A stretch of DNA of 64,000 nucleotides from Acidimicrobiia bacterium (GTDB lineage Bacteria; Actinomycetota; Acidimicrobiia; Acidimicrobiales; Aldehydirespiratoraceae): the NCBI GenBank assembly GCA_003231645.1, contig QIIW01000026.1, forward strand, positions 8,775 through 72,774, given 5' to 3'. Under the pieces are notes generated by a model, which was not told where the DNA came from, searched no databases, and saw only the letters and a list, made by a program, of their open reading frames with translations. Below, one piece after another: positions 2,692 through 43,989 of this stretch. Both the position numbers and the translations under genes were made by a program. How positions within the stretch are numbered: the stretch's first letter is position 1; each line of letters begins with the position of its first letter.

Positions 2692-5535
2692 ATGCAACTC
2701 TCACAGTTGATCGTCCTGGTGTCCGGAGCGTCTCTCACCGGGTTTCTCTGGTGGTTTTTCTTCGGTCCGAGGAAGGAACACCACTCCGACGTGCACGGGG
2801 ACATTCAGGAGATGGCGATCACGGTGGAGGGCGGCTACAGCCCCAACATCGTCCGCGTTCGCCAAGGAGTCCCGTTGAGACTGACATTCGACCGCCGAGA
2901 GGCCGGTGACTGCACCTCACGTGTGGTATTCCCCGACTTCGGTGCATCGAAGCCGCTGCCGGCGTTCGGTTCGGCGTCGCTGGAGTTCACTCCTGACAAA
3001 GCCGGCGAATTCCGCTTCGCTTGTGGCATGAACATGATCCACGGCACTCTCGTGGTCGAATCGGCCGACACGTTCGAGAACGGCGCTGCTGTCAGCAACA
3101 ACGGACAAGGCCGGGCCGACACCAAGATCGATGACAGCAACATCGAGACTGTCCACACCGAAAGCACCGAGTTCCGCGTCAGCGGGATGTCGTGCGCTTC
3201 CTGCGTAACACGAATCGAGTCGGTCCTCGACGGACTCCCCGGCGTCGATCGGGTCGAAGTGAGTTTCGGTACCGAACGGGCGACAGTCGATTTCGATCCG
3301 AACACGATCACCGTCGCGGATCTCCAGACGGCCGTGGCCGGAGCCGGCTACAAACTCGTTCCGCGCACTTCGGGCCAGGTGGCCCCCGACGATCACGAGG
3401 CCGAGGAGCGCAAGGCCGAGATCGCCGATCTGTCCCGACGGGTCATCATCGGAACGATCCTGTCCACGCCGGTCGTGTTCGCGGTGATGGCCGTGGATCT
3501 GTTCTCGGTGGGCTGGGTCCCCGATTTCCTGATGAACCGATGGTTCCAGCTGGCGCTGATCACGCCCGTCATGTTCTACACGGGCTGGCCGATCCACCGA
3601 ACGGGCTGGTTGACCCTGAAGCACCGCGCCGCCGACATGAACTCGCTCATAACCATCGGCAGCATCGCGGCCTTCGGCTACAGCCTTCTCGTGACGGTCG
3701 CACCATCTCTCGTCCCCGTCGAAGTCAGAGAGGTGTACTACGAGGCAGTCGGCGTCATCATCACCTTGATCCTGCTCGGAAGACTGCTCGAGGTGCGCGC
3801 CAAGGCGGGAACCGGCGAGGCGATCCGGAAGTTGATCGGAATGCAGGCTCGCACCGCGACCCTCATTCGCAACGGTGACGAGGTCGAAGTTCCGATCGAG
3901 GAGGTCGTCCCCGGTGACGTGATCCTTGTGAGACCCGGTGAGAAGGTTCCCGTCGATGGCGTGATCATCGACGGGCGCTCTACCCTCGATGAGGCCATGG
4001 TCACCGGGGAATCGATCCCGGTGAGCAAGACCGTGGGCGACACTGTCATCGGGGCCACCATCAACCAGACCGGCGCCTTCCGGTTCGAGGCAACCAACGT
4101 CGGCTCCGACACGATGCTGGCTCAGATCATCAAGCTGGTCGAACAGGCCCAGAGTTCCAAAGCTCCAATCCAGCGCCTCGCCGATCTCACGGCCTCGTAC
4201 TTCGTCCCGGCTGTCATGTTCATCGCCATCACCACTTTTGTCACCTGGTTCATCGTCGGCCCCCAACCTGCACTCACGCTCGCCCTCGTTGCCGGCGTTG
4301 CGGTACTGATCATCGCCTGCCCGTGCGCACTGGGACTGGCCACACCGCTTTCGGTCATGGTCTCCACCGGCAAGGGGGCCGAGCACGGCATCCTGATCAG
4401 ATCGGCCGAAGCCCTGGAAACTGCACACAAGATCGACACGATCGTCCTCGACAAGACCGGGACGATCACGAGGGGCAAGCCGGAACTGACCGATGTGACC
4501 ACATTCGCCGGCATCAACGAGGCAGAGTTGCTCCGGCTGGTGGCGTCCGCCGAACAATCGTCGGAACATCCCCTGGCCCAAGCCATCGTGAGCGGGGCAC
4601 ACGACCGGAACCTCGACCTCGTCGAACCGGCCGAGTTCGACTCGATCACCGGCAAGGGGATCCGGGCAATCGTCAGCAGCCGTGAGGTCCTCATCGGAAA
4701 CAGGCGCCTGCTCGACGACGCCGGTATCGACTCCGATGCAGTGACCGACCTCAGCAACCGACTGGCCGAAGAAGGCAAGACTCCGATGCTGGTCGCCATC
4801 GACGGCGAACCGGGCGGTGTCATTGCTGTTGCCGACACGGTGAAGGAGGACTCCGCCGCGGCGATCGCCGCCCTACGAGCCCTCGGGATCGAGGTGGCGA
4901 TGATCACGGGTGACAACGCCCGAACTGCAGCAGCGATCGCCCGTCAGGTCGGGGTGCAGCGCGTGCTGGCCGAGGTTCTGCCCGAACGCAAGGCCCTCGA
5001 AGTCCGGCGCCTCCAGGAGGAGGGAGGGGTGGTCGCCATGGTCGGCGATGGCATCAACGATGCCCCGGCGCTCGCTCAGGCCGATGTCGGATTCGCCATC
5101 GGCACCGGGACCGACGTGGCCATCGAGTCGTCGGACATCACGCTCATCTCCGGCGCTCTCGACGGGGTCGTCACGGCCATCACCCTGAGCCGGTCCACAC
5201 TGCGAAACATCCGGCAGAACCTCTTCTTCGCCTTCATCTACAACGGGATCGGAATCCCCGTGGCGGCGGGCGTGCTCTACCCGTTCATCGGGGTCCAGCT
5301 CAGCCCGATGCTCGCCGCCGGCGCGATGGCCGGGTCGAGTCTCTCGGTTGTCACCAACGCGAGTCGTCTCCGCCGCTGGAGACCGCGGGAGATCGACGTC
5401 TCCAAGGTCACGGCCGTCGGCGAGCCGCTGATCGAACTCGGATCCGATGAGAAGATGTCGACCCCGAAGAAGGCTCCCACCGATGATGTCGAGGTCCGCT
5501 GCGAGTCCGAGTACGTCCACCAAGGTCAGCACTGA
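2692..5535 (+). CDS. copA: copper-translocating P1B-type ATPase with an N-terminal TM-anchored cupredoxin-like domain and an HMA domain
   Basis: AGGAGGTGA RBS. Motifs: GMSCASC (HMA), TGES, CPC ([11 protein letters not shown]), [20 protein letters not shown]-terminal residues 38-123 carry Cys74 and C111-G-M-N-M115. Confidence 0.95.
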
Positions 5536-11865: not shown

Positions 11866-12074
11866 CGTGACCTGCCCCCGATGATCCGGCCCGGCGACAT
11901 CGCCAGGTGGTCGGACATACGCCCGCGGTCGGTGGTGGCGGCCGGCCGTGGGACCGTCCACGGTGAACCGTCATCGGCTGCCCGGAGTCGTGACAGTTGA
12001 CCGATGTCACACCTCGGGCCATGCTGTGGCGCGTTCTCGAGCGCAGAACCGAACATCAGGACAGGGGGGTTTCG

Positions 12075-12782
12075 GTGCGCCACGTACGTTCGCTCGCTCT
12101 CATCATCACATTCACACTGATCGCCGCCGCGTGTGTTCCCCTGTCGGTGGTATGGGGGCCGGGTGGCTCACTGCGCCCCTATTGGTGCGACCCCTCCGAC
12201 ACCGCCATCAACGACGCCCACGGCCTCCCGGCCAACTTCAACGCGGCGTATACCCAGCCCAAGGGCCCACTCTCGGGCCCCGACTGCCTACTTACCACCA
12301 ACTACCTCCGGTCATCCGAGGCGTTCGTCAAGCAGTACCCCACGGTCGCCGACGCCGAGGCCGCCGGATGGAAACAGGGCGCGGTCTGGGCCGCCGGCCA
12401 AGGCATCCACTACGTCGACCCGAGCCGTCTTCTCGGCCCGTTCGATCCCCGTAAACCCAACTGGTTGATGTACGACGGCACGTCTCCTGGTTCGTTGCTC
12501 ACCGGGATGATGTACCTGTTGGACACCGGGAGCACCACCCCTCCGTCCGGGTTCCCGGGGGACAACGACCACTGGCACCAGCACGGCGCCCTGTGCACCG
12601 ACACGACACCGGGGACCTACCCGTTTATCATCGGCGAGAGTCTCACCGGTCCGCAGTGTTCGTCGATCGGTGGGATCAACGTCATCCGGCCGACCATCTG
12701 GATGGTCCACGTCTGGTTACCCGTTTACAAGAACTGGGTTCCCACCGACGTGTTCAACAAGTCCCACCCGCTCATTCCCTGA
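12075..12782 (+). CDS. hypothetical secreted protein, probable lipoprotein
   Basis: GTG 12075 follows AGGGGGG. The N-terminus VRHVRSLALIITFTLIAAAC resembles a signal peptide with a lipobox-like Cys. The mature part has coding-like composition and an HWHQHG motif. Confidence 0.7.
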   Translation: MRHVRSLALIITFTLIAAACVPLSVVWGPGGSLRPYWCDPSDTAINDAHGLPANFNAAYTQPKGPLSGPDCLLTTNYLRSSEAFVKQYPTVADAEAAGWKQGAVWAAGQGIHYVDPSRLLGPFDPRKPNWLMYDGTSPGSLLTGMMYLLDTGSTTPPSGFPGDNDHWHQHGALCTDTTPGTYPFIIGESLTGPQCSSIGGINVIRPTIWMVHVWLPVYKNWVPTDVFNKSHPLIP

Positions 12783-12801
12783 TCCCCCACGACGGCACGC
12801 A

Positions 12802-13582
12802 TTGAAAATCCTCCTCCCGGTGGGTTGCGAGGTCATCTACTGGTCGATCGGCATCCGACGCGGTGATCCACGCCTGCGAACCCTGCTCGACCGTTGGGGT
12901 GACCCGACCCTGCGATGGGTGCAGGCGCCCGCGGCGGGAATCGAACATGACCTCTGGCAGTCGCTCATCACCTCCGGTGTGCGGCTCACCAACGCATCCG
13001 GCATCCATGCCGAGCCGATCGCTCAGTATGTGATCGGCTGGATCCTCGCCTGGTCACAGGGCCTCCAAGGCCAGTTCACCCGATCGCGCCACCACGAATG
13101 GTCGGTGGCGCCGGCTCGTGATCTCCGGCCCGGCCGATCATGTCGACGAGATGCTCACCCCCGACCGGCTTCCCGAACTGCCGGCCGAATCCGACTATGT
13201 CGTGCTGTGTGTGCCGGCCGGCGATGAGACCCGTGGCCTGATCGGTGCTGCCGCATTCGCCGCCATGAAACACTACGCCGTGTTGATAAACGCCGTGTTG
13301 ATAAACATCGCGCGCGGGTCGATCGTGGACGAGGATGCTCTCACCGACGCGCTCTCCGGCGGTCGTATCCGCGGCGCCACGCTCAACGTGGTGCGTGAGG
13401 AACCACCACCGCCCGAATCCCCGCTCTGGGACCCGCCGAGATGTGTGATCACACCCCACCAGTCGAGCTACTCTCCCTTGGGGGCCGACCGGCTCGACAC
13501 CTTGTTCATCCACAACGTCGGCTGCTACCTCGACGGCGCTCCGATAGGCAACGAGGTGGCCGGTCGCGGTTCAGCCGAGTAG
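12802..13582 (+). pseudogene. D-isomer-specific 2-hydroxyacid dehydrogenase, disrupted (frameshift, loss of the GxGxxG region, 15-bp duplication)
   Basis: Two ORFs in different frames (12670..13227 and 13118..13582) carry the family's N-terminal part (LRWVQAPAAGIEH...NASGIHAEPIAQYVIGWILA) and C-terminal part (SDYVVLCVP...INIARGSIVDEDAL...ITPHQSS). The roughly 35-40 aa NAD-binding GxGxxG segment between them is absent. Confidence 0.6.
13276..13305 (+). repeat. perfect 15-bp tandem duplication inside the dehydrogenase pseudogene
   Basis: cgccgtgttgataaa occurs twice in tandem, duplicating AVLIN within the conserved MK..A.LIN.ARG motif. Confidence 0.9.
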
Positions 13583-13604: not shown

Positions 13605-14078
13605 TCAGATGTATTCGGGTAACACCTCGACGATGTGCTCCGGGGTGGTCTGCGGAGCGAACCTCACCACCACCTCGCCGTCGCCATTCACCAGGAACTT
13701 CTCGAAATTCCAGGCGATATCGGAGGTCTCTCCATCACCGGGGCACTCCGACCTGAGCCACCTGTAGAGGTCACAGGCCCCCTCGCCATTGACCTCGATC
13801 TTGGCAAACATGGGGAAATCGATCCGGTAGTTGTCACTGACAAACCCTCTGATCTCCTCGGCCGTGCCGGGCTCCTGGGCACCGAACTGGTTGCAGGGAA
13901 ACGCCAGAACGGTGAACTCGTCGGTGTCATGATGAAGCGTACGCAGACCTGCGTACTGGGGGGTGAAGCCTCAACGACTCGCTACGTTGACCACCAGGCA
14001 GGTGGTGCCACGATAGTCGGCGAAATCGACCATCTCCCCATCCAGCGACTCCATGTGGAACTCGTGGAAACGAGTCAT
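13605..14078 (-). CDS. gpx: glutathione peroxidase with in-frame UGA at the catalytic position (probable selenocysteine enzyme)
   Basis: ATG 14078 has GAGGAG 5 nt upstream. A single 158-codon frame reads ...LVVNVASR-TGA-GFTPQY...LAFPCNQFGAQEPG...FPMFAKIEVNG...WNFEKFLV. The only internal stop is TGA at 13971..13973, replacing the redox Cys. A SECIS-like hairpin follows. Confidence 0.85.
13939..13956 (-). promoter_or_regulatory. bacterial SECIS-like hairpin downstream of the gpx UGA
   Basis: The mRNA reads UGA-GGCUUCACCCCCCA-GUACGCAGGUCUGCGUAC. The hairpin is a perfect 7-8 bp stem with a GGUC apical loop. The core GCAGGUCUGC is identical to the apical part of the E. coli fdhF SECIS as I recall it. 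The loop GU sits one codon further from UGA than in fdhF. Confidence 0.7.
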
Positions 14079-14127
14079 GATATCTCCTCTCGACCGAGCC
14101 AGAAGTTACACATCAGGAGGACGGGTC

Positions 14128-27583: not shown

Positions 27584-30073
27584 TCAGTCGAAGCTGTCGG
27601 TGCCGGCCTGTTCGTCGTTCAACTTGACCAGCGCTATCGAGGCAACCACATCGTCGTCATCGGGGCGAATGACCTTGACCCCGCTGGCTGAGCGGCCCTG
27701 GACCGAGATGTCGGCGGCGCGGGTGCGGATCAACACCCCGTTTCGGGTGACGGCCAGGATCTCGTCGCCGTCCTCGACGATTAGCGTTCCGACCACCTCT
27801 CCGCGCTCGGGCGTGACCTTGATGCCACGAACCCCCATGCCACCACGTCCCTTGCACGGGTAGTCATCGACCGGAGTGCGTTTGCCGTATCCGGCCTCGG
27901 TGATGTGGAGGAGTGTGGTGTCGTCGCGGGCGATGTCGCAGCCGACCAGGTGATCGCCCTCCTTCTTGAAACGGATGCCCTTCACCCCGGCCGCGTTGCG
28001 GCCCATGGCCCGAACCTTGTCCTCACTGAAACGAATGGTCTGCCCGAGCCGCGATGACAACAAGATGTCGTAAATGCCGTTGGTGGGCACCACTTCGACC
28101 AGTTCATCGTCGTCGTTGAGTCTCACGGCTATGAGGCCGGCACGCAGCGACGAGTCGTAGGCATTGAAACGGGTCTTCTTGACCCGTCCGTTGGCGGTGG
28201 CGAAAAAGAGATAGCGGTTGGTCTCGTAGTCGCGGGTGTCGATGACGGCTCTGATCGTCTCACCGTCCTGCAGCGGCAGCAGATTGACGATCGCCATACC
28301 TCGGGAAGTGCGCGACGACACCGGTATCTCATGCGCTTTCAACCGGTAGACACGACCGCGCGTGGAGAAGAACAGCAGGTAGGAATGTGCGGTGGTCTGG
28401 ATGAGGTGGGTGACGGTGTCCTCGTCCTTGAGCCTGGCACCCGCCACTCCCCTGCCGCCTCGTCCCTGGGTTCGGAACTCCTCGGCCGATACCGTCTTGA
28501 CGTAACCCGACGCCGACATGGTGAACACCAGATCGTCGTCGTCGATCAGGTCTTCGATGTCGAACTCGCCGGGATCAATCTCGAGGCTCGAATGCCTGGG
28601 TTCGGTGAACTTGTCGCCGATGGCGGTGATCTCCTCGTCGATGACCCCTCGAAGCCTCCGGTCGTCGCCGAGGATCGCCTCGAGCTCGGCGATCTTCTCT
28701 CGCTTCTCGGCTGCCTCGGATTCGAGGTTCTCTCGACCGAGGCGGGTGAGGCGCACCAGCTGCATTTCGAGTATGTGGTTGGCTTGGACCTCCGAGAACC
28801 CGAATGGCTCCGTCATCAGGGCGGTGCGCGCACTGGCGCGGTCGGCGCTGGCGCGAATCGCGACGATGATCTCGTCAATCAGATCCAGGGCCTTGATCAG
28901 GCCCTCGACGATGTGGAGCCTTTCTTGGGCCTCGTCGAGACGATATTGCGACCGGCGGGTGACGACCTCGATCTGATGCTTGACATAGGCCACGAGGGCG
29001 TCGCGAAGGGTGAGGGTTCGGGGAACACCGTCGACGAGTGCCACCATGTTGATGGCGAAACTCGACTGCAGCGGCGTGTGCTTCCAGATGTTGTTCAGGA
29101 CCACCTCGGGGTTGGCATCACGCTTGAGCGTGACTACGAAGCGGGTGTCGTCGCCTGATGACTCGTCATTGACGTTGGATATCCCGTCGAGAACCCCCGT
29201 CTTCACCAGCTCGACGATCTTGCGGGCCACCGTCCCGGCCGAGACTTGGTAGGGCAAAGCGGTAACCACCAGGCAGGTCCGCTTCTTGATCTCGGTGATC
29301 TCGATGTCAGCCCGCATCTTCACCGACCCACGACCGGTGCGGTAGGCCGACTCAATCCCGACCCGGCCGAGGATCTGACCGCCGGTCGGGAAATCGGGGC
29401 CCCGCACGAACTCCATCAGATCGTCGGTGGTGGCCTCGGGGTTGGCCAGGAGGTGCTTGACGGCATCGACCACCTCACCCAGGTTGTGGGGTGGGATGTT
29501 GGTGGCCATGCCCACCGCGATGCCCTGGGACCCGTTGACCAGTAGGTTGGGGAACCGCGCCGGCAACACGAACGGTTCGGTGAAATCGCCCGAGTAGTTG
29601 TCGACGAAATCGACCGTGTCCTCGTCGATATCGGCCAACATCCACATGGCAAGTCGATCGAGCCGCGATTCGGTGTAGCGGGCGGCCGCGGGACGGTCCT
29701 CGGGCGAGCCGTAGTTGCCGTGGAAGTCGATGAGGGGATGGCGCAGTGAGAACGGCTGGGCCATCCGGGCCAGCGCGTCGTATATCGCGGTGTCACCGTG
29801 GGGATGGAAGCGGGCCATCACGTCGCCCACGACGCGGGCACACTTCACGTAGTTGCGATCGGGCCGGAATCCTTGGTCGTACATCGACCACAAAATGCGT
29901 CGATGGACGGGTTTCAGACCATCACGCGCGTCGGGTAGGGCGCGGCTGATGATGACCGACATGGCGTAGTCGAGGAAGGAGCTTTCCATCTCCTCCTGAA
30001 TCTCGATGAGGCTGTGGACTTCGCCATCATCCGCGGATTCGGGCTCGACACCGGTTGGTGGTTGATCACTCAT
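27584..30073 (-). CDS. gyrA: DNA gyrase subunit A
   Basis: 829 aa. Has DGLKPVHRR, the HPHGD...AIYD QRDR region and C-terminal beta-pinwheel repeats. Confidence 0.98.
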
Positions 30074-30089
30074 GCGCGGATCCAGCCAT

Positions 30090-32180
30090 TCAGAAATCGA
30101 GATTTCGTACTTCGCGGGCGTTGGTGACGATGAAGTTGCGACGCAACGAAACGTCGTCGCCCATCAGGATCGATGTGACCTCGTCGGCCAGGACCGCCTG
30201 CTCGACCTCGACCTTGAGCAGACTCCGGGAGCCCTCCTCCATCGTGGTCGACCGCAATTCCTGCCAGTCCATCTCGCCGAGCCCCTTGAGTCGCTGGAAG
30301 TCCTTGGTGTAGTTGGGTCGATCGGCGAGGAACGCTTCCTTGGCCGCGTCGTCCTTCAGGTAGACGGTGTTGTTGGTGGAGACTTTCGTGGAATACAACG
30401 GTGGTTGGGCGATGTAGACGTAGCCGGCCTCGACCATGGGACGCATCTGCCGGAAGAAGAACGTGAGCAACAGGGTGCGGATGTGACTGCCGTCGACATC
30501 GGCGTCGGCCAGCAGGATCACCTTGTGATAGCGGGCCGCCCCGAGGTCGAACTCGTCGCCGAAACCGGCTCCGATCGCGGTTATCAACGCCTGAACCTCG
30601 TTGTTCTTCAACATCTTGTCGATACGGGCCCGCTCGACGTTGAGGATCTTGCCGCGGATCGGCAGGATTGCTTGGGTTTCGGGATTCCTGGCTCGCACCG
30701 CGGAACCGCCGGCCGAATCGCCCTCGACGATGAACAACTCGCGACGCGACGCCTCCTTGGCCGAACAGTCCTTGAGCTTGTCGGGCATGCCGGCACCGTC
30801 GAGCAGTGACTTTGAACGGATCGCCTTGCGAGCATCGGCGGCGGCCACACGCGCCCTGGAGGCACCGAGCGCCTTGCCCACCACCCGTTTGGCCTCGTTG
30901 GGATGCTCTTCGAGCCATTCGGTCAGCTTCTCATTGGTGACCTTCTCGACCAGGGAACGCATCGACACGTTGCCGAGCTTCGACTTGGTCTGGCCCTCGA
31001 ACTGCGGCTCCCCGACGCGGACGCTGATGATCGCGGTGAGACCTTCGCGGATGTCCTCCCCTTGCAGGTTGGGTTCCTTCTCCTTGAGAAGACCCCTGTC
31101 GCGGCAGTAGGCGTTGACCGTGCGGGTCAGGGCGGTGCGAAAACCCTGCTCATGCATGCCACCTTCGAGGGTGGCGATACCGTTGGCGAAACTGTGGAGA
31201 CCGTCGGAGTTGAATCCGGTGTTCCACTGGAAGGCGACCTCGACCTCGTGGGCGTTACCGACGAGGTCCTCACTTCCGGAAAAGTATCCGACATCCTCGA
31301 ACAGGGCCTCCTTCGCCGCGTTGACATGTCTGACGAAATCGATGATGCCGCCGCCGTAACGAAAGATCGTCCAGCCGTCGGTTTGTCCCCCGTGCCGGTC
31401 GTTGACCACTTCGATCGACTGATCGGAACCGGCGGGGTGATCGCCATCTTCTCCTTGCTCGACCGACTGATCTCCGTCCAGAGGGGGCGGTGGGGCAACG
31501 GCGTCAGCGCGAAGGTCACGAACCCTGATCTCGAGTCCGCGATTGAGGAACGCCATCATCTGAAAGCGTTCGACGAGCGTCTTGAAACGGAACACGATCT
31601 CATCGAAGACCGTCGGGTCGGGCCAGAATCGCACCGTGGTGCCGGTGCGCGGTTCATCATCCACCACCGGGGCGGTGCCGATCGGGGCGAGCTTCGACGA
31701 GAGGTCACCACCATCGACGAACGACATGGCGTAGCGGGATCCGTGACGGTCGATCTCGACCTCGACGCGGCTCGACAGGGCATTGACGACAGACACTCCC
31801 ACGCCATGAAGGCCGCCCGAAACCTTGTAGCCCTTACCACCGAACTTGCCGCCCGCGTGCAGCACGGTGAGAACCACCTCGGCCGCGCTCATGTCGGTGT
31901 ACTTGGGGTGGGTCCTGACCGGAATGCCGCGTCCATTGTCGACCACCTCGCATCCGCCATCGGCGAGGAGGGTGATGTCGATACGCGTGCAGTAGCCGGC
32001 CATGGCCTCGTCTATCGAGTTGTCGACCACCTCCCACACCAGGTGATGGAGGCCGGTGGGGCCGGTGGAACCGACGTACATGCCGGGGCGTCGCCGGACC
32101 GCTTCGAGCCCCTCGAGAACGGTGATGTCCTGGGCTCCGTATGTCGACTCGCTCTTGGAGGTCAAACCTGACGATTCCAT
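30090..32180 (-). CDS. gyrB: DNA gyrase subunit B
   Basis: 696 aa. GHKL ATPase (LEGLEAVRRRPGMYVG, GGLHGVG), TOPRIM (LFIVEGDSAGGS) and PLKGK-like (PIRGKILNVE) motifs. Confidence 0.98.
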   Translation of the reverse strand: MESSGLTSKSESTYGAQDITVLEGLEAVRRRPGMYVGSTGPTGLHHLVWEVVDNSIDEAMAGYCTRIDITLLADGGCEVVDNGRGIPVRTHPKYTDMSAAEVVLTVLHAGGKFGGKGYKVSGGLHGVGVSVVNALSSRVEVEIDRHGSRYAMSFVDGGDLSSKLAPIGTAPVVDDEPRTGTTVRFWPDPTVFDEIVFRFKTLVERFQMMAFLNRGLEIRVRDLRADAVAPPPPLDGDQSVEQGEDGDHPAGSDQSIEVVNDRHGGQTDGWTIFRYGGGIIDFVRHVNAAKEALFEDVGYFSGSEDLVGNAHEVEVAFQWNTGFNSDGLHSFANGIATLEGGMHEQGFRTALTRTVNAYCRDRGLLKEKEPNLQGEDIREGLTAIISVRVGEPQFEGQTKSKLGNVSMRSLVEKVTNEKLTEWLEEHPNEAKRVVGKALGASRARVAAADARKAIRSKSLLDGAGMPDKLKDCSAKEASRRELFIVEGDSAGGSAVRARNPETQAILPIRGKILNVERARIDKMLKNNEVQALITAIGAGFGDEFDLGAARYHKVILLADADVDGSHIRTLLLTFFFRQMRPMVEAGYVYIAQPPLYSTKVSTNNTVYLKDDAAKEAFLADRPNYTKDFQRLKGLGEMDWQELRSTTMEEGSRSLLKVEVEQAVLADEVTSILMGDDVSLRRNFIVTNAREVRNLDF

Positions 32181-32376
32181 TTCGGTGTTGTGGGCGTCGT
32201 GATGTCGGATGCCGTCATGTCGGATGATTCGGGCCCGTCAGCCGTGGTCACTTCCCGGCCCTGGGCGAATGGACGCGAAGGGAGAAGGAACGCTCCGCCG
32301 GATGCGTCGGATCGCTGACTGAGCGATGGTCGACAGGCCCCTTCACGGTGCCGCTATTCTACCAGCCGAGAGGCCC

Positions 32377-32694
32377 TTATCCGCGGCTGTCAACCCGCAC
32401 GCGAATGTCGGTGATGCGTGTCGTTCCGGTGATCTCCGCCACCCGCGCCACAACCTCGGAATGCAGCCACTTGAGCTCCGCCGCCCAGGCCGGATCGTCG
32501 ACCGCGACAACCACCACGTCACCGTCGATCGCCGTGGGGCGGGAGTGCGCGGCGAGGTCGACCCCGACGATTTCTTCCCATCGCCCGAACACCGCCGACA
32601 GTACATCGGTGGATGGTGCGCGCATCGCGCCCAGAAGGTGATCGAGCGCGGCCGAGATGGTCTTCGGCTGGGTGTTTCCGGATCGTCCCATCAT
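32377..32694 (-). CDS. dciA: DUF721/DciA-family protein (replicative helicase operator, Rv0004-like)
   Basis: 105 aa. Conserved position between recF and gyrB. The start overlaps the recF stop. Has a DUF721-like ...WEEIVG...H..P......L.V.V....WA.EL core. Confidence 0.85.
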   Translation of the reverse strand: MMGRSGNTQPKTISAALDHLLGAMRAPSTDVLSAVFGRWEEIVGVDLAAHSRPTAIDGDVVVVAVDDPAWAAELKWLHSEVVARVAEITGTTRITDIRVRVDSRG

Positions 32695-33770
32695 GACTCC
32701 ACCGAGATTGTGCCACGGTCGACGCGCATGACGTGGTCCGGCGCTGCCCCCGGGGGGACATCCGACGCCACGGTGAGCAGGCTCTGGGCGTCGGGCAAGG
32801 CCTCCAGCAGGGCTCGGGCCCGGCCCGGATCGAGTTCAGAGAACACGTCGTCGAGCAGGAGCACCGGTGACCAACCAGCGGCGCGAACGACGGCATCGAC
32901 CGCGAGTCGCATGGCCAGTGCCGTCGAACGCTGCTCTCCCTGCGAGCCATGGGTGCGAGCAGGCACGCCGCCGATCGACAGTTCGATCTCGTCCCGGTGG
33001 GGACCCACCGTCGAAACTCCCCTTCTGACATCCAAGCGACGCGACCCGATAAGCGCCGCGCCCAAATCACCTTGCCAGCTCGATACGTAGTCGGCCCGAA
33101 CGTCGGCCGCCCGGCGGGCCACGTGGTCATAGGCCCTGGTGAGGTGGGGCCGTATCTCGCCGAGTAGATCGAGGCGAGCCTGCCTGAGAGCGTCGCCGAC
33201 CGCCGCCAACTGGGAATCCCACACGTCGAGCGTGAACTCGGCATCGGCGTCGAGCTTTCCGCCGGCCGACCGCAGTAGAGCATTACGTTGTCTGAGTATC
33301 CGTTCCAGATCCGACCGAAGGGAATCGTGTCGGGGATGTCGACCAACCAGCGAATCATCGATCCAACGTCGTCTGAGCGCCGGCCCGCCTTTCACCAGGG
33401 AGAGATCGTCGGGTGAGAACACGGTCACGCGGATCACACCCAGAAGATCACGTGCCCGTTGGACACGCTGTCGGTTGACCTGGACCCGATTGCGCCCGAT
33501 CCGAGGCAATTCCGCCTCGATCAGTTGTTCCCGGCCGTCGCCCGACTCGATGGTGGCTCTGATCACGGCGCTGTCGGCACCGACCCGGATAAGCGCATCA
33601 TCGGCAACACCACGGAAACTGCCGATACCGGCGAGCCATCCGATGGCCTCGATCAGATTCGACTTACCCTGACCATTGCCACCCACGATCACTGTGAGAC
33701 CGCCGCCGAACTCGATATCAGCCGTGTGGTAGTTACGGTAATCCTTCAGATGAAGAGCGCGAACCAACAC
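32691..33770 (-). CDS. recF: DNA replication/repair protein RecF
   Basis: Walker A GGNGQGKSNLIEA, signature GSQGEQRS, Walker B LLLDDVFSELD. GTG start. Confidence 0.95.
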   Translation of the reverse strand: MLVRALHLKDYRNYHTADIEFGGGLTVIVGGNGQGKSNLIEAIGWLAGIGSFRGVADDALIRVGADSAVIRATIESGDGREQLIEAELPRIGRNRVQVNRQRVQRARDLLGVIRVTVFSPDDLSLVKGGPALRRRWIDDSLVGRHPRHDSLRSDLERILRQRNALLRSAGGKLDADAEFTLDVWDSQLAAVGDALRQARLDLLGEIRPHLTRAYDHVARRAADVRADYVSSWQGDLGAALIGSRRLDVRRGVSTVGPHRDEIELSIGGVPARTHGSQGEQRSTALAMRLAVDAVVRAAGWSPVLLLDDVFSELDPGRARALLEALPDAQSLLTVASDVPPGAAPDHVMRVDRGTISVES

Positions 33771-33783
33771 CGTCTGGTGCCGG

Positions 33784-34884
33784 TCAACTCACACGGACCG
33801 GCATGAGGAGATAGAGGAAATCCTCGTCCTCGACCGAGCGGAGCAGCGCCGGCTTGAGTTCATCGACGGTCTCGAGAGTGATCTCGTCACCAGGGGCAAC
33901 TTCGATGCCGTCGATCAGGTACTCGGGGTTGAACGCCACGGTGAGATCTTCACCTTGATAGGCGGCGGGCATCGACTCGTGGGCCTGACCCACATCCTGA
34001 GTGACGGCAACGAGTTCGAGACCATCTGATGACATCGACAGACGAATCGGGGTGGATTCCTGGGCCATCAACCGAACCCGTTTCACCGCGTCGAGCAGAG
34101 CACCACGGTCGATGGTGAGACGATTCGGGTGGTTGGTGGGAATCAACCCGCGGTAGTTGGGGAAGTCACCCTCAATGAGCCTGGTGGTGACCGACACGTT
34201 GCCGACCTCGAAGCTGGCCTCCTGTTGTCCCAACCTGAGTGTGAGTTCCTCGCTGTCACCGATGAGCCGACTCAGTTCGAGCAGAGACTTGCTGGGGACG
34301 AGAACCTTCTGACCATCACTAAGGATCGATGTACCGGCCAGATCACACACCGAGAGACGATAGGAATCGGTGGACACGAGTCGTAGACCGTCGTCCTCGG
34401 CCGCCATGAGGACTCCGGTGAGGATCGGGCGGGCATCATCGGAGGACGCTGACTTGACAACCTGCTGAAGAGCCCCTCGGAACGCGGCCCCCTGCAGGGT
34501 CACAGCGTCACCCTCGGGTGCGGTGAGCTCCGGAAACTCATCGGCTGGAATCGTGCGAATCGCGAACTCCGAAGGAGGAGACACCATGCTGAGTTCGTCC
34601 CCCTCCATCGTGATATCGACCGCTCCCGGTCGCAACGATCGCACGATGTCGGTGACCAACTTGGCCGGAACCACTGCCACGCCGTCCTCGGCCCCGGCTA
34701 CCGTCGTCCTGACGGTGATGGTCAGATCGATATCGCTGCCGGTAACGGTGAGAAGGTCACCAACGAGCACCAAGTGGACGCCCGACAACACGGGAAGGGC
34801 TCCACCCCGCGTGCTCACAGCTCGGCCGGCGGAGACGAGGGCGTTCTGCAGGATGTCTCGTTCGCAGCGAAACTTCATACCCAT
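33784..34884 (-). CDS. dnaN: DNA polymerase III beta sliding clamp
   Basis: 366 aa with three-domain clamp architecture. MKFRCERDILQNAL N-terminus and LMPVRV C-terminus. Confidence 0.95.
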   Translation of the reverse strand: MGMKFRCERDILQNALVSAGRAVSTRGGALPVLSGVHLVLVGDLLTVTGSDIDLTITVRTTVAGAEDGVAVVPAKLVTDIVRSLRPGAVDITMEGDELSMVSPPSEFAIRTIPADEFPELTAPEGDAVTLQGAAFRGALQQVVKSASSDDARPILTGVLMAAEDDGLRLVSTDSYRLSVCDLAGTSILSDGQKVLVPSKSLLELSRLIGDSEELTLRLGQQEASFEVGNVSVTTRLIEGDFPNYRGLIPTNHPNRLTIDRGALLDAVKRVRLMAQESTPIRLSMSSDGLELVAVTQDVGQAHESMPAAYQGEDLTVAFNPEYLIDGIEVAPGDEITLETVDELKPALLRSVEDEDFLYLLMPVRVS

Positions 34885-35124
34885 GGTGCTATTGCTTCTT
34901 CCGGTTGTATCTGATTCAGATAGTAGGAGTTCATAGGGCCTGTGGATTGTGGATCATGGCGGGTCTGGCGTGCAACGACAACGATCGTGTGTCCCTAGGG
35001 TTTCCAGTGACGCTCACAGGTTGGGTCGCACGGAGCGCGCCGTGGTGGATGGAGGGTGAGTTGTTCGACCCGGATCCACCGGAGGCGAGCAGGATGTCCA
35101 CAGCAGTATCTACACGCCGGCCGA
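34885..35124. other. oriC candidate (dnaA-dnaN intergenic DnaA-box cluster plus AT-rich element)
   Basis: DnaA-box-like 9-mers: tgtggattg (34941), tgtggatca (34948), ggtggatgg (35044), ggatccacc (35072), atgtccaca (35094). The locally AT-rich stretch 34888..34935 is a possible unwinding element. Confidence 0.6.
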
Positions 35125-36603
35125 TCATGACGGATGGTTGAGCCGGTGCTGGAGTTCGGTCACCTTGTCGAAGATCTTCTGTCGCTCACCCATACGAGCC
35201 TCGATCTTGCGGACCGCGTGCATCACGGTGGTGTGGTCGCGGTTGCCGAACGACTTGCCGATCTGCGGATACGAGAGATCGGTGCTGTTGCGGGTGACGT
35301 ACATGGCCACCTGGCGGGCATCGACCAACGGCCGCTGGCGGCTGCCTCCGGTGAGCTGTTCGATCGTGAACCCGAACATGTCGGCGGTGAGCTCGATGAT
35401 ACGAGCGGCGGTTACCGGCGGCTTGGCCGACTTGCTGATCAGATCGGCGAGAACCATCGAAGCGAGATCGACAGTCAGAGGCTGATGGGTAAGGTTGGCG
35501 AATGCGGTGACCTTGATCAGCGCGCCTTCGAGTTCGCGAATCGAGTCGGTGATGTTCTCGGCAATGAACGAAAAGACCCCGTCGGGAATGTCGAGGGTGT
35601 GGGAACCTGCCTTTTTGCGAAGGATGGCCAAGCGGGTCTCGAGATCAGGAGGCTGGATGTCGGTGATGAGCCCCCATTTGAACCGACTGCGCAAGCGATC
35701 CTCCAGGGTGGGGATGGCGTCGGGAGTACGGTCGGAGGACAGCACAATCTGCTTGTTGTTCTGATGAAGTTCGTTGAAAGTGTGGAAAAATTCTTCCTGA
35801 AGGCCGTCCTTGCCTTCCATGAACTGAATGTCGTCGACCAGCAGAACGTCGTTCTCGCGGTAGCGACGCTTGAAGTCGGGCAGGTTGTTGTTCCGGATGG
35901 CCTCGACGAATTCGTTGAGAAATGTCTCGGTCGAGACATAGCGGACCCGCGCTTCGGGGTAGTGGTGGGCCACGTAGTGAGCGATGCCTCTGAGAAGGTG
36001 GGTCTTGCCGAGCCCGGAGTCTCCGTGAATGAACAACGGGTTGTAACTCATCGCCGGCGTCTCGGCGACCGCGAGTGCGGCGGCATGGGCGAAACGGTTG
36101 GAGGGCCCGATCACGAAATGCTCGAATGTGAACTTCTCGTTGATGCTGTCGCGGTTGAGCCGATTGGGTGTCGGCGGCTGCCGGCCTCCTTGGTAGGTGA
36201 GGTCGGGGGCCGGCACGTCGAAGACGACGTCATCCCAGTCGGTCTCGATCTCGACCCGCACGTTGCACGGATTGTCGGATTCGTCGATCGCATCTTGAAC
36301 CAGGCCGAGGTAACGGCCTTCGATTCGTTCTTTTTGGAGTCCGTTGGGCACGACCAGGACGAGGTCGCCCTCGTCGAACGCCACGGCGCGCGCGCCGCTG
36401 AAGGTCGTATTCCAGACAGCGTCACTCACCTGGGCGCGGATCGACTTGGCGCAGCTACCCCACAGGCGATCGGCGTCTTCGGTTTCTCCCACTCGTTTCA
36501 ATCCTGTCTCCACAACGTCGTCCACAGGCGTGGACCAGCCGGGGCGAGTTCTTCGAAATCCATCCGGATCCGGGTGGCGCGAGCTACGGGCGGCAATGTT
36601 CAC
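35125..36603 (-). CDS. dnaA: chromosomal replication initiator DnaA
   Basis: AAA+ Walker A GDSGLGKTHLL, Walker B LLVDDIQF, box VII/sensor, and C-terminal DnaA-box-binding domain (VARQVAMY...GNRDHTTVMHA). The true start is probably internal (GTG/TTG about 36490-36525), because the first ~30 codons look non-coding. Confidence 0.95.
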   Translation of the reverse strand: MNIAARSSRHPDPDGFRRTRPGWSTPVDDVVETGLKRVGETEDADRLWGSCAKSIRAQVSDAVWNTTFSGARAVAFDEGDLVLVVPNGLQKERIEGRYLGLVQDAIDESDNPCNVRVEIETDWDDVVFDVPAPDLTYQGGRQPPTPNRLNRDSINEKFTFEHFVIGPSNRFAHAAALAVAETPAMSYNPLFIHGDSGLGKTHLLRGIAHYVAHHYPEARVRYVSTETFLNEFVEAIRNNNLPDFKRRYRENDVLLVDDIQFMEGKDGLQEEFFHTFNELHQNNKQIVLSSDRTPDAIPTLEDRLRSRFKWGLITDIQPPDLETRLAILRKKAGSHTLDIPDGVFSFIAENITDSIRELEGALIKVTAFANLTHQPLTVDLASMVLADLISKSAKPPVTAARIIELTADMFGFTIEQLTGGSRQRPLVDARQVAMYVTRNSTDLSYPQIGKSFGNRDHTTVMHAVRKIEARMGERQKIFDKVTELQHRLNHPS

Positions 36604-36919
36604 CGGTGGATCGGCGAACGTAGCAGTGCTGTGGAAAGCCGCAACTCGGAGATCGAGGACCCCCCAAAACTCCTGCTCAGGTCGAGTGTCACCGAACGTA
36701 ATTACATGATTGGAAGATCCGTTACACGGTTGTCGTTCTCACGCCGCGTCCGGTTGAGGCGTGGCTGGGGGCTGCGGCGGGACATCTTGGCATTATCCGG
36801 ACTGGTTGCTGCGGTGGTGATCGGACCCTACGGTTGTGCGCTGACGTCCACGGTTTCCACAACCTTGAAACCGTTTTTCGCCGTAGACAGTGTCCTGCCC
36901 ACGGCCTTCCGGAGGAAGT

Positions 36920-37054
36920 ATGAAGCGCCCCTACCAACCAAACACCCGCAAGCGGAGCAAGAAACACGGCTTCCGTTCTCGTATGAGTACTCGCGCCGGT
37001 CGCGCCGTGCTCCGCTCTCGTCGCCAGAAGGGCCGCGCCCGCCTTTCGGCGTGA
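36920..37054 (+). CDS. rpmH: 50S ribosomal protein L34
   Basis: Not in the ORF track (44 aa). GGAGGAAGT precedes the ATG. Sequence [44 protein letters not shown]. Confidence 0.95.
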
Positions 37055-37386
37055 TTCACAGTCTTTCGGATCGCCGCTCGTTCCAGAGGCTGAGATCCCA
37101 GGGGGTGAGGCGCGGCAGTGGTCCGATCAGGATCGTCTACCATGCCATCCCCGGTGACTCAGCACGCGTAGCTTTCGCCATATCGAGTTCCGTTGGTGGC
37201 GCGGTGGTCCGGAACCGGATCAGGAGACGGATCAAAGCCGTGCTACGAGAAATGTCAATTGCCGAACCAAGCTCATTGCCCGGGGGCGACTACCTCATAA
37301 GGGTCACCGCCCCCCTCGATCGATTCGACCACCGATCGTTGGGTCGCATCATCGAAGAGTTGGTCGCGGACGGGGGATCGTCATGA
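37051..37386 (+). CDS. rnpA: ribonuclease P protein component
   Basis: GTG 37051 overlaps the rpmH stop (GTGA). RNR-like motif [16 protein letters not shown]. It is the last 111 codons of the composite 750-aa track ORF. Confidence 0.9.
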
Positions 37387-37619
37387 CCCCGGCCGCCCGA
37401 CTGCTGCGATGGGCAGTGCGCGCGTACCAGCGTCTGTTCGCCGGACGTCCTTCCCCGTGCCGATACGTGCCCTCGTGTTCTGCCTACGCGGTCGAGGCCG
37501 TTGAGACCCACGGGGCAGTCCGAGGTGGCTGGTACGCAACGAAACGTATATGCCGGTGCCACCCTTGGGGTGGCCACGGTTGGGACCCCGTGCCTGAAAC
37601 CAGGGAACACCGATGCTAA
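37383..37619 (+). CDS. yidD: membrane protein insertion efficiency factor YidD
   Basis: [19 protein letters not shown]...[17 protein letters not shown] signature. The start overlaps the rnpA stop. Confidence 0.92.
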
Positions 37620-38884
37620 ACCTGATTTACGACAGTACCGGCGGGTTGATGGCGTGGTTCTATTCGATATGGCCTTCATACGGCATGTCGGTGGTGTTCA
37701 TCACCCTCGCTGTCATGGTGTTCGTCACCCCGCTCACCCTGAAGAGCACGAAATCGATGTTGCAGATGCAGCGGCTCCAGCCGGAGCTGAAGGCGATCCA
37801 GAATCGTTACAAGGACGATCGTCAGAAGATGAACGAAGAGTTGATGGCCTTCTATCAGGAGAACGGCATCAACCCCCTCGGTGGATGTCTGCCACTGTTG
37901 ATCCAAGCGCCCGTTTTCCTGGTGCTGTACCGCGTGGTGAGAGGACTCACCCGTCGGGCCAACAGCGTGGGCGATCAACTCGGCTGGATGGCCGGCGGTG
38001 GCAAGGGCCTCACCAGTATCACGTCGATCGAACATGTGTTCGATCCACAGAATGTGGCCCGTACCAGCAAGCTCTATCTGAGTCTCCGTGACTCGCGTGA
38101 AATGCTGTCTTGGGGCATTGACCTATCGCGATCTGCTTCGGAGGTCATGAGTGAGAGCCTTGTGTCCGCGCTCCCCTACTTCGTTCTTATCGGCGTCGTC
38201 CTGGTCAGCAGCATCTACCAGCAACGCCAGATCCAAGGCCGCAACACCGGCGCACAGGTGAATCCGCAACAGCAGATGATCATGAAGGTGATGCCTTTCC
38301 TGCTACCGGTGTTCAGTTTTACCCTGCCCGCCGCGCTGGTCGTGTACTTCGTGGTGTCCAACGTCTATCGAATCGGCCAGCAGGGTTACATAACCCACTC
38401 TCTCTACAGCGGAGAGGACAGCTTGGGTGCCCAGGTGGCCAAGCAGCGAACGGTCGATGCTGACGATGACAAGACCGGCAAGGCGAAGGGCTCCGATACC
38501 GCGACGGAAAAGAGCAGCCCGGAGCGGTCTCGATCGGGAGGAACAGCAGGTTCGCCGGGGAAGAAGGACCTGTCGGCCAAGCGTCTCAAGAGCGAGCGTG
38601 TCGCCAAGGAAGCCTCTGCCGACGAGGCCGGAAGTGCCGAGAATAAGTCTGGGAGCGCCAAGAACAAGTCTGGGAGCGCCAAGAATAAGCAGGCCAAGGC
38701 CGGGCGCTCCCCCGCCGCCGGGGGCAAGTCCCGGGGCCGATCGGCCAAGCCGGCCGGCACCAAACGGGATTCGTCGGGTGGCGACGACCGGCGTGGTGGT
38801 CGCCCCAGTCGAGCACCGTCTCGGGCCAAAGGCGGACGAACCACGGATCCGGGTAGCCCGCAGTACCGGAAGCGCAAGAAGTAG
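37613..38884 (+). CDS. yidC: membrane protein insertase YidC with a long Lys/Ser/Gly-rich C-terminal tail
   Basis: 60-kDa-IMP core ([43 protein letters not shown]). About 140-aa basic tail. Confidence 0.95.
38645..38686 (+). repeat. 21-bp tandem repeat (2 copies plus a partial copy) in the yidC tail
   Basis: aagtctgggagcgccaagaa(c/t) occurs twice, encoding KSGSAKN repeats. Confidence 0.85.
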
Positions 38885-38958
38885 CGGCCTGTTGGTCGAA
38901 CCGGTCGTCACTCGTTGAGGCGGCCGGCAGTAGTACCGAAATATCAGGGAGGCAGAGA

Positions 38959-39891
38959 GTGGAATGGGTAGAAGGAGTCGGGGACTCCGTTGATGCGGCC
39001 AAGGAGATGGCACTTGAGGCGCTGGGCGTGCACGAGGACGACGCCGAGGTGGATATCGTCAGCGAGGCCAAGGTTGGGTTGTTCAATCGGGTGAAGGAAC
39101 GGGCTCGGGTTCGGGCCAGGGTCAGGCCCGCCACGCCTCGGACCAAGGACGACCACCGACGTCGCCGTGGACGGGCCGGCAACGGAGGGGTTCAGCCCGC
39201 CAAGGCGAAGAACAGGTCGGGAGAAGTGAGGGGACAGACCGGCACCAAGGATGGCGCCGTGAGGAGCGATTCTCAGAAGGCCACCAGGGCGTCTGAGACC
39301 AAGAGCCAAAAGGCCAACTCGGCCCGGTCGGCCGGTGGGCATGGCAACAGAAACCGTAATCAGAACGGTGGTCGAGAGGCTGCCCCGAAGTCTAGGGATG
39401 ACAACATGGAGACGATGACACTTCCGGAGCAGGCCGACATTGCCGAGGCGTTCGTCACCGGCCTCGCGGCCGCGTTTGGCGAGTCGGTGACCTTCGATCG
39501 CACCGAGGTCGATGAGAACGAGATCCGAATCGTGGTGAACGGTGAGAATCTCGGACGAATGATCGGGCGCCGAGGAGCCACGGCGAGTGCGATTGACGAG
39601 CTGGTGCGCACGGTATTGCAGCGTCAGGCCGGTGGGGGCCGTGAAGGACGGGTCAGGATTGACGTCGGTGGAGTCGCCGGCCGCCGCGAGGAGGCTCTGC
39701 GCGTGTTCTGCCGCAAGGTGGCCGAGCAGGTACGCGAAACCGGCAAGGAAGTCGCACTGGAGTCGATGCGGGGTTCGGATCGCAAAGTCGTGCACGACGC
39801 CATGGCGTCGGAGGAGGGTGTGGGCACGATTTCAGAGGGCGAGGACCCCAACCGCCGGGTGGTCGTCGTGCCGGCGGGGAATGACGACTGA
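38959..39891 (+). CDS. jag: Jag/KhpB RNA-binding protein (Jag_N, KH, R3H)
   Basis: GTG start after AGGGAGG. Jag_N (VEGVGDSVDAAKEMALEALGV), a basic linker, KH (IVVNGENLGRMIGRRGATASAIDELV) and R3H (RKVVHDA...SEGEDPNRRVVV). Confidence 0.9.
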   Translation: MEWVEGVGDSVDAAKEMALEALGVHEDDAEVDIVSEAKVGLFNRVKERARVRARVRPATPRTKDDHRRRRGRAGNGGVQPAKAKNRSGEVRGQTGTKDGAVRSDSQKATRASETKSQKANSARSAGGHGNRNRNQNGGREAAPKSRDDNMETMTLPEQADIAEAFVTGLAAAFGESVTFDRTEVDENEIRIVVNGENLGRMIGRRGATASAIDELVRTVLQRQAGGGREGRVRIDVGGVAGRREEALRVFCRKVAEQVRETGKEVALESMRGSDRKVVHDAMASEEGVGTISEGEDPNRRVVVVPAGNDD

Positions 39892-40516
39892 CGAGTTTCT
39901 GTCGCTCCTCGAGACGGCCTGGCGGCCGGCCCGGGAGATGGGCGCCCTGGGTGGCGTCTCGGTGGCTCAACTGCGCGATCATGCGGCCGGGTTTGTCCCG
40001 TCCGCTTTTCGCGTGAACTCCCCCGCCGACTGTGTTGACATCGGTTCCGGTGTGGGCGTCCCGGGGATATTTCTCGCCCACCTGCTCCCCCACACCCGCT
40101 GGATACTCGTGGATGCCAGCCAGAGACGTTGCGAGGTCGCCCATCAGGCAGTGGAGGCGGTCGGCCTGGGCGGCAGGGTGGCGGTTGTGCACGGTCGAGT
40201 GGATGAGTTTGCCCATCTCAGTGAGCGACGGCAGAAGTTCGACTTGGTGGTCAGTCGTCTCTTCGGTCATGTATCCGAGACGGCTGAGTGTGGGTTGCCG
40301 CTGGTCAGGGTCGGTGGCTGCTTGGTTGTGTCGTGTCGCGAGCCGGCGGTGGCGGCCTGGTCGGGATCCGAACTTGGGCCGCTGGGTGGCCTGTTCGGAG
40401 CATCATGGACATCGGACCAGGGTACTTTCGTTCGTATCGACGGCGTGGCGGGCCTCGAGGGTCGGTTCCCTCGACGACCCTCGGCCCGGCGGCGGGCGCC
40501 GTATCTGGTGGTCTGA
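39881..40516 (+). CDS. rsmG: 16S rRNA (guanine527-N7)-methyltransferase
   Basis: VDIGSGVGVPGIFLA SAM motif. Conserved position between jag and parA. Confidence 0.88.
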   Translation: MTTDEFLSLLETAWRPAREMGALGGVSVAQLRDHAAGFVPSAFRVNSPADCVDIGSGVGVPGIFLAHLLPHTRWILVDASQRRCEVAHQAVEAVGLGGRVAVVHGRVDEFAHLSERRQKFDLVVSRLFGHVSETAECGLPLVRVGGCLVVSCREPAVAAWSGSELGPLGGLFGASWTSDQGTFVRIDGVAGLEGRFPRRPSARRRAPYLVV

Positions 40517-40552
40517 GTCACTGTGGCTCCCCCGGCTGGGCTCTGGCGGGCA

Positions 40553-40568
40553 CGTTTCACGTGAAACA
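40553..40568. promoter_or_regulatory. parS centromere-like site
   Basis: CGTTTCACGTGAAACA matches 15 of 16 positions of the tGTTTCACGTGAAACa consensus. It contains a perfect 14-bp palindrome and lies in the rsmG-parA intergenic region. Confidence 0.8.
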
Positions 40569-40673
40569 CTGTCTCGGACTCACCACGCCATCTCGACAAG
40601 ATTGTCGAGGGTCCTTGCAACTCGGTCGAAGATCGGGAAGGATTGGGCGGATGGCTGGAAGGGAGACCGCTCA

Positions 40674-41474
40674 GTGTCGGCTGCCGAGAGTAGGGGTTCG
40701 AACGGGGCCAGGCCGCGCGTTTTCGCGGTCGCCAATCAGAAGGGCGGCGTGGGAAAGACTACCACCACGGTGAATTTGGGCGCGGCCATGGCCGATCTCG
40801 GTCGCCGAATACTGGTGGTCGATCTGGATCCCCAGGCCAACGCCAGTACAGGCTTGGGCCTGAACCCGAGGCAACTCGACCACTCGATGTATGACGTTCT
40901 GCTGCAGGGAGTTGCGCTGGAGGATGTGATAGAGCCGGCTGCTGTCAAGGATCTCTACGTCGCCCCGGCCAGCCTTGATCTGGCTGGGGCCGAGATAGAA
41001 CTGGTGCCTGCCTTCAGTCGTGAACGGAAGCTGAAAGTGGCCATCGAGTCGGTGGGTAGCGACTACGATGTCATCCTGATCGATTGTCCACCGTCGTTGG
41101 GGCTTCTCACCATCAACGGACTCACCGCGGCCACAGAGGTGATGGTTCCCATACAGACCGAGTACTACGCCTTGGAGGGATTGGGACAACTTCTCCGCAA
41201 CGTTGATCTCGTGAAGCGTAATCTGAACCCGGATCTCGAACTCAGCACGATCGTGCTGGTGATGTTCGATGCTCGCACCAAGTTGTCGGGTCAGGTCGCG
41301 GACGAGGTACGAGAACACTTTGGGGACAAGGTCTGCCGACAGGTGATTCCTCGCACCGTCCGTCTGAGTGAGGCGCCGAGTTTCGGACAGCCCATAACGG
41401 TTTTCGATCCGATGTCACGAGGTGCGACCGCCTATCGTGAGTTGGCAAAGGAGATCATCAATGGCGCGACGTAG
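40674..41474 (+). CDS. parA: chromosome partitioning ATPase ParA/Soj
   Basis: Deviant Walker A ANQKGGVGKTTT. GTG 40674 follows GGGAG. Confidence 0.95.
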   Translation: MSAAESRGSNGARPRVFAVANQKGGVGKTTTTVNLGAAMADLGRRILVVDLDPQANASTGLGLNPRQLDHSMYDVLLQGVALEDVIEPAAVKDLYVAPASLDLAGAEIELVPAFSRERKLKVAIESVGSDYDVILIDCPPSLGLLTINGLTAATEVMVPIQTEYYALEGLGQLLRNVDLVKRNLNPDLELSTIVLVMFDARTKLSGQVADEVREHFGDKVCRQVIPRTVRLSEAPSFGQPITVFDPMSRGATAYRELAKEIINGAT

Positions 41475-43868: not shown

Positions 43869-43989
43869 CTGATGGTCCTTTCGTAGACAGGCACGTGGGT
43901 GCATCGTGGTGAACAACACCCGACCTGGTGCGGCTATTCCGCTGCCGACTCTACATCTGGCCGACGACACCACGGCGACGCGGCGCAGG

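Follow-up and report, generated by a model that had tools for sequence, protein, structure and literature searches.

The glutathione peroxidase locus

The window (the whole 64-kb stretch of DNA that was analysed) contains on its minus strand a gene of the glutathione peroxidase (GPx) family with one UGA codon inside its reading frame and an RNA hairpin a short distance downstream of that codon. The features of the gene are collected in Table 1. Translation from 14078 to 13605 gives a frame that reads MTRFHEFHMESLDGEMVDFADYRGTTCLVVNVASR-TGA-GFTPQYAGLRTLHH...WNFEKFLV...PEYI, in which the TGA, located within NVASR-*-GFT, is the only internal stop. An earlier note on this DNA had described a continuous GPx frame from this ATG, preceded by a GAGGAG ribosome-binding site and broken once, at the peroxidatic residue; all of these features were found again, and the ORF listing in the same frame reproduces the C-terminal tail of 68 amino acids (13605..13811) that was all the original ORF track contained of this gene. 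A scan for promoters and terminators around the GPx gene found none.

Table 1. Coordinates of the GPx gene of the window and of the elements within and before it.
Feature	Position	Strand	Remarks
GPx coding sequence	13605..14078	minus	157 codons including the predicted Sec-UGA at codon 36, plus terminal TGA 13605-13607
Shine-Dalgarno-like GAGGAG	14084..14089	minus	5 nt upstream of ATG 14076-14078
In-frame UGA, putative Sec codon	13971..13973	minus	peroxidatic residue, codon 36; aligns with TGC/TGT in 50 of the homologues, TGA in 31
Spacer between UGA and hairpin	13957..13970	minus	14 nt (GGCUUCACCCCCCA); length invariant in 32/32 Sec genes
Predicted SECIS apical hairpin	13939..13956	minus	5′ arm 13950-13956, GGUC loop 13946-13949, 3′ arm 13939-13945
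CUUCA, possible 3′ strand of a lower stem	13933..13937	minus	would pair with UGAGG 13969-13973; from MFE fold, weakly supported
Gln68 codon (AQEP), GPx catalytic tetrad	13875-13877	minus	role assigned from GPx4
Trp123 and Asn124 codons (WNFEKF), GPx catalytic tetrad	13707..13712	minus	roles assigned from GPx4

The family assignment does not depend on one side of the internal stop. When the window protein was searched with Cys replacing the stop, the Pfam model GSHPx (PF00255) matched residues 4-109, a span that includes the TGA, with 126.6 bits against a cut-off of 27 bits (E = 3.7e-37), and tblastn matches to residues 1-157 cross the TGA in relatives as well. The NCBIfam glutathione peroxidase models are matched with scores under their equivalog cut-offs; NF007900 (BtuE), for example, scores 152.9 bits against a cut-off of 270 bits. 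If residue roles are transferred from the GPx4 tetrad, which consists of U46, Q81, W136 and N137, the tetrad of the window GPx is complete (U36, Q68 and W123-N124). The Cys/Sec position and the FPCNQFG.QEP block are conserved in all 82 GPx genes that were aligned.

The gene convergent with GPx, a 2-hydroxyacid dehydrogenase gene (12790-13582, plus strand), is either a pseudogene or the product of faulty assembly. The N-terminal and C-terminal parts (the latter with Pfam positions 79-177 only) are encoded in different frames, the N-terminus is partly deleted, the GxGxxG stretch present in a homologue (locus L001) is missing, and the sequence AVLINAVLIN looks like the product of a 15-nt tandem duplication; the same dehydrogenase is intact (321-331 amino acids) in L001, L087 and L088. 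A gapped gene map of the window revealed no further split gene beyond this decayed one. The neighbouring ORF at 11994-12779 (plus strand) has 262 codons, a strong coding signature (GC3 0.82) and no Pfam match, and its counterpart at the same position in L087 (244 amino acids) has no Pfam hit either.

On a larger scale, the window is a chromosomal replication-origin region, recognized by synteny with L086 (dnaA, dnaN, recF, gyrB, gyrA, parB and yidC). The origin-region genes lie at 27587-42345 and 59929-62916 (gyrA, gyrB, a dnaA-like ORF, yidC and parB, then ssb, rpsR, rplI and dnaB), and the GC skew changes sign near 28-32 kb. The GyrB protein of the window has a 93% identical relative in the syntenic origin region of GCA_054033455.1, and its named homologues, at 77-79% identity, belong to metagenome-assembled genomes of Acidimicrobiales. 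Thioredoxin and thioredoxin reductase genes are located at 43545-45024.

The hairpin downstream of the UGA

The sequence GUACGCA-GGUC-UGCGUAC can fold into a perfect 7-bp stem with a GGUC loop, 14 nt past the UGA, just as previously described. Its predicted folding energy is -8.5 kcal/mol alone and -14.2 kcal/mol with a lower stem that contains the UGA. This lower stem was rejected as a supported element for want of covariation: across the family 86% of its cells are paired, 18 of 32 genes cannot form one of its pairs, no change is compensatory, and the bases of CUUCA are also constrained as codons for Leu-His.

Published criteria for bacterial SECIS elements specify a loop of 3-9 nt with a G within its first two positions, an upper stem of 4-16 bp, a distance of 16-37 nt from UGA to loop, and a minimum free energy of -7.5 kcal/mol or lower (PMC13188914). 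The hairpin of the window falls within all of these ranges, with a 7-bp stem, a 4-nt GGUC loop 21 nt away from the UGA, and -8.5 to -14.2 kcal/mol. The sequence GCAGGTCTGC occurs once in the window against an expectation of 0.12, and each strand of the 64 kb contains 15 perfect hairpins with a 7-bp stem and a 4-nt loop (approximately 2e-4 per base). The 71-nt local stretch folds with ordinary energy (z = -0.88), and an Rfam search with the hairpin returned nothing at the gathering threshold and no SECIS match at E values up to 10. Given these chance estimates, the ordinary fold and the Rfam result, the single sequence is only suggestive, so the decision falls to its relatives; the unexceptional energy of the 71-nt fold is the reason to place the evidential weight on comparative data and not on thermodynamics.

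The earlier note called the element fdhF-like, a description that holds for the apex and fails for the element as a whole. The reference for this comparison was the 47-nt SECIS of Escherichia coli fdhF, for which 5412 E. coli genomes give a 100% match in fdhF and the apex of which is experimentally defined. The 47-nt reference contains GCAGGTCTGC, and its 10-nt apex GCAGGUCUGC, made up of the GGUC loop and three closing pairs, is identical to that of the window, as the earlier note had claimed. Both elements can take up the UGA in a lower stem. Counted from the T of TGA, the apex of fdhF starts at +18 and that of the window at +21, which agrees with the previous estimate of one additional codon (3 nt). 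However, the fdhF minihelix folds with one unpaired (bulged) U, whereas the stem of the window is a perfect 7 bp; 11 nt separate the UGA from the minihelix in fdhF, compared with the 14-nt spacer of the window; and the sequences that flank the apex are unrelated. Both the bulged U and the 11-nt spacing matter in the E. coli fdhF SECIS.

Conservation of UGA and hairpin among GPx genes

The comparison set consisted of 82 GPx genes, those of 80 loci found in a scan with one genome per species and that of the window. At the catalytic codon, 50 genes have TGC or TGT and 32 (31 and the window) have TGA; the hosts of the TGA form are Acidimicrobiia, Gammaproteobacteria (Pseudomonadales, OM182, Azotimanducaceae and others) and Myxococcota. 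The stem has seven of seven pairs in 30 of the TGA genes and six of seven in the other two, its distance from the UGA is the same in all, and the loop is GGUC in 30 and GGGU in 2, whereas not one of the 50 Cys genes reaches six stem pairs. Helix occupancy over the 32 genes is 99.1% of cells. Changes that preserve pairing consist of a replacement of G-C by A-U in L022 and L050 and of U-G or G-U wobbles in eight cells; classical covariation is thin (one pair in two sequences) because the hairpin is nearly invariant.

Synonymous sites provide a separate measure of constraint. In the Sec genes, third-position entropy is 0-0.34 bit at codons +5 to +10 and 1.3-1.9 bits in the flanking codons, with the synonymous sites of the spacer varying freely at 1.3-1.9 bits; in the Cys genes, the same codons +5 to +10 have 1.0-1.8 bits. 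Synonymous sites are frozen over the hairpin codons of TGA genes only, and therefore selection acts on the RNA and not on the protein alone. The protein differs as well: Sec forms encode QYAGLR(T/A)L after the catalytic codon and Cys forms encode QYAGL(E/Q)AL, from which it follows that the stem dictates two residues.

A covariance model was built from the 44-nt module that comprises the UGA and the hairpin. Sec loci score 52-71 bits with this model (the window, 65 bits) and Cys loci 30.7 bits or less, and a scan of the 64-kb window located no second hairpin of the GPx-SECIS type.

These comparisons bear directly on the explanation that the TGA is a nonsense mutation or sequencing error in a Cys-type GPx gene and the hairpin a coincidence. 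The ordinary energy of the local fold and the presence of pseudogenes nearby are in line with such an explanation, but a neighbour-joining tree shows the TGA as the ancestral state of a single clade, so a fresh nonsense mutation is ruled out; the hairpin accompanies the TGA in all 32 genes of this clade and in further metagenomic members, while Cys homologues encode the QYAGLEAL type of sequence with no stem. An assembly artefact is excluded by independent NCBI, ENA and JGI assemblies, and the Sec clade is also distinguished at the protein level, by its missing resolving Cys. We consider this explanation to have almost no chance of being correct. The argument that a nonsense mutation would hardly bring a SECIS-like hairpin with it had already been made for the window gene alone, and the contrast of 32/32 TGA genes with 0/50 Cys genes bears it out.

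Protein searches for near relatives of the window gene yielded C-terminal GPx fragments with 71-77% identity and full-length GPx proteins with 68% identity at best, none of them nearly identical. The contigs that encode the fragments, L087 (GCA_964509555.1) and L088-L090 (from JGI metagenomes), share the synteny of the window, with an FGGY kinase divergent upstream, a PLP decarboxylase beyond it and the 2-hydroxyacid dehydrogenase convergent downstream, and their GPx proteins have 74-76% amino acid identity to that of the window. All four resemble the window gene in the MTRFHEF start, the GAGAGGAGA box, the length of 157 codons, the TGA at codon 36 and the hairpin; the arrangement GAGAGGAGA-N5-ATG of the window is repeated in L087 and L088. 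The question whether close homologues carry TGC or TGA is answered by these syntenic relatives in favour of TGA with the hairpin. Upstream of the TGA, the 35 residues have 77-80% identity with those of L087-L090, which is above the gene average, and dN/dS relative to L001-L003 is about 0.3-0.44 upstream of the TGA and 0.17-0.29 downstream, below 1 on both sides. Therefore, the segment that precedes the UGA evolves as part of the protein.

A few relatives depart from the pattern. In two metagenomic relatives the TGA is replaced, by TGT (Cys) in L083 (3383-3835) and by CGA (Arg) in L084 (1484-1960); the hairpin is intact in both. They look like very recent conversions of Sec and as such like snapshots of Sec loss, although L084 may instead contain an error. 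An Ilumatobacteraceae metagenome-assembled genome (L027, JBEBGL010000007.1) has GPx genes in tandem, a Cys form at 3001-3465 followed by a Sec form at approximately 3470-3940 with its TGA at 3573. The Cys copy is nested in the Sec clade and lacks the hairpin; in it, a Cys stands three residues ahead of where the resolving Cys usually lies.

In NCBI and JGI records, relatives of the window gene appear as an ORF of 35 amino acids and a separate "glutathione peroxidase" of 100-121 amino acids, and two full-length protein entries of the Sec clade (P0005 and P0014) have W at the Sec position; the earlier prediction that annotation pipelines would miss or truncate such a gene was accurate. The two W entries raise the possibility that decoding of the UGA yields a standard amino acid (Trp, Gly or Cys), either in a variant genetic code or by near-cognate read-through independent of a SECIS. 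TGA is, however, the commonest stop of the window, where it ends 30 of 45 long ORFs, the GPx gene among them; as a normal stop it cannot have been reassigned, and for the same reason the W entries may most simply be explained by gene calling with a code that translates TGA as Trp. A conserved hairpin with frozen synonymous sites would have no role in SECIS-independent read-through, and Trp or Gly at the peroxidatic position of a GPx would inactivate the enzyme. A standard-amino-acid reading is accordingly very improbable. A GC3-based scan of the window for other TGA-interrupted genes returned 40 candidates that resemble off-frame shadows of a high-GC genome, and missed the GPx gene itself.

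Predicted function and relation to known selenoproteins

The presence of a UGA with a conserved hairpin would also be compatible with a relic, that is, a Sec gene that was inherited in a lineage from which the Sec machinery was recently lost, so that translation would now end at codon 36, leaving the gene silent or in decay. ARAGORN identified no tRNA-Sec in the 64-kb window (the only tRNA of which is tRNA-Ile) or in the 31 Sec loci, and tblastn searches of the window and the 80 loci with SelA, SelB and SelD of E. coli found none of these proteins. Because 64 kb is about 2% of a typical genome, their absence from the window is nearly uninformative. Actinomarinales, which form another order of Acidimicrobiia, are reported to possess Sec machinery (bioRxiv 10.64898/2026.04.03.716425). 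The convergent dehydrogenase gene, decayed in the window and intact in relatives, indicates that gene loss does occur at this locus, and the replacement of Sec by Cys in L083 and by Arg in L084 points in the same direction. The GPx gene itself, however, has 157 codons without a frameshift, deletion or additional stop, a perfect hairpin, an intact start and ribosome-binding site, and dN/dS below 1 on each side of the TGA, whereas the pseudogene beside it has accumulated deletions, a frameshift and a duplication. A relic is for these reasons unlikely.

The GPx gene of the window is intact, it belongs to the GPx family, the UGA stands at its catalytic site, and UGA and hairpin are strictly co-conserved under selection. 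On sequence evidence, we assign a probability of roughly 0.88 to the reading that it is a working selenoprotein gene, which would encode a GPx-family peroxidase with selenocysteine (Sec) at codon 36. That the gene encodes a Sec-containing GPx and is not a pseudogene, the central proposal of the earlier note, is strongly supported by the 82-gene comparison and the syntenic relatives.

For such a gene, the events of decoding can be predicted. As the ribosome nears the UGA, SelB with GTP and Sec-tRNA(Sec) would bind the hairpin, with its GGUC loop, 14 nt downstream, and would compete with release factor 2 by delivering Sec to the A site. Translation would then run on as far as the ordinary TGA stop, which lacks a hairpin of this kind. 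The enzyme would reduce hydroperoxides via a selenenic acid intermediate and would be recycled by an external thiol, which may be a low-molecular-weight thiol or thioredoxin directly.

The prediction of an external thiol comes from the pattern of cysteines. Among the 82 aligned genes, 49 of the 50 Cys forms have the resolving Cys (in the "FC" block) and none of the 32 Sec forms does; the column is occupied by Val or Ala in 32/32 Sec forms, Val80 (13839-13841) in the window. Other Cys residues recur in the Sec clade, at GAC-DLY in 75% of its members (C102 of the window) and at TTC-LVV in 53% (C27 of the window). Since there is no resolving Cys, recycling is probably carried out by an external thiol. 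The pattern mirrors the split between Sec-GPx and Cys-GPx of animals and suggests that the reducing partner may differ between the two forms. Because no gene of the examined set combines Sec with the canonical resolving Cys, it may be speculated, with considerable doubt, that the Sec-GPx clade is mechanistically distinct and similar to animal GPx1 and GPx4, its selenenic acid being reduced directly by a low-molecular-weight thiol (in Acidimicrobiia necessarily one other than glutathione, such as mycothiol, which would make the enzyme a seleno-"mycothiol peroxidase"), and that the clade with its nearly invariant SECIS has moved as one module between Acidimicrobiia, marine Gammaproteobacteria and Myxococcota.

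The practical consequences concern annotation. The GPx gene is systematically mis-annotated in public data, and therefore inventories of oxidative-stress genes of Acidimicrobiia and marine Gammaproteobacteria miss a peroxidase that is predicted to be catalytically superior. The conserved 44-nt UGA-SECIS module could serve as a simple and specific detector for the Sec-GPx clade.

The call made for the window gene is well supported, but its type is not new, bacterial Sec-GPx having been known since about 2004. Published examples include a GPx selenoprotein of Treponema denticola (PMC1794560), five sequences with bacterial SECIS elements from the Sargasso Sea (PMC1088965) and forty sequences in the GOS data (PMC2398784). 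A 2026 review describes a "GPX-like protein, UxxT" as "predicted with high confidence" and does not place it among the experimentally verified families (PMC13188914). Sec-GPx is less rare and better recognized in bacteria than the earlier note implied, in view of this published family and of the 32 Sec forms among the 82 nearest GPx genes compared here. The finding leaves knowledge of Sec decoding unchanged; given that no bacterial GPx-like selenoprotein is listed as experimentally verified (PMC13188914), the window gene would be a convenient test case.

The predicted selenoprotein of the window shares with the bacterial GPx-like selenoproteins (WP_010957027.1 of T. denticola and those of the Sargasso Sea and GOS data) membership in PF00255, a UxxT motif (UGFT in the window), and a SECIS inside the coding region just downstream of the UGA. 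It differs in its host: Acidimicrobiales, to which the host of the window gene belongs, are not named as GPx hosts in the four publications (PMC1088965, PMC2398784, PMC1794560 and PMC13188914). Cys-type enzymes (GPx/BtuE, the thioredoxin-dependent 2-Cys GPx) belong to the same fold family with 48-57% identity to the window GPx and have the FPCNQFG.QEP and WNF.KFL motifs in common with it, but they combine a peroxidatic Cys with a resolving Cys, whereas the window GPx would have Sec and lacks the resolving Cys. In the latter respect it is like the Sec-GPx of animals, such as GPx4, which has a peroxidatic Sec and lacks a resolving Cys. The animal SECIS, in contrast, is a kink-turn element of the 3′ UTR read by SBP2 and eEFSec, while that of the window is a coding-region hairpin of the bacterial type.
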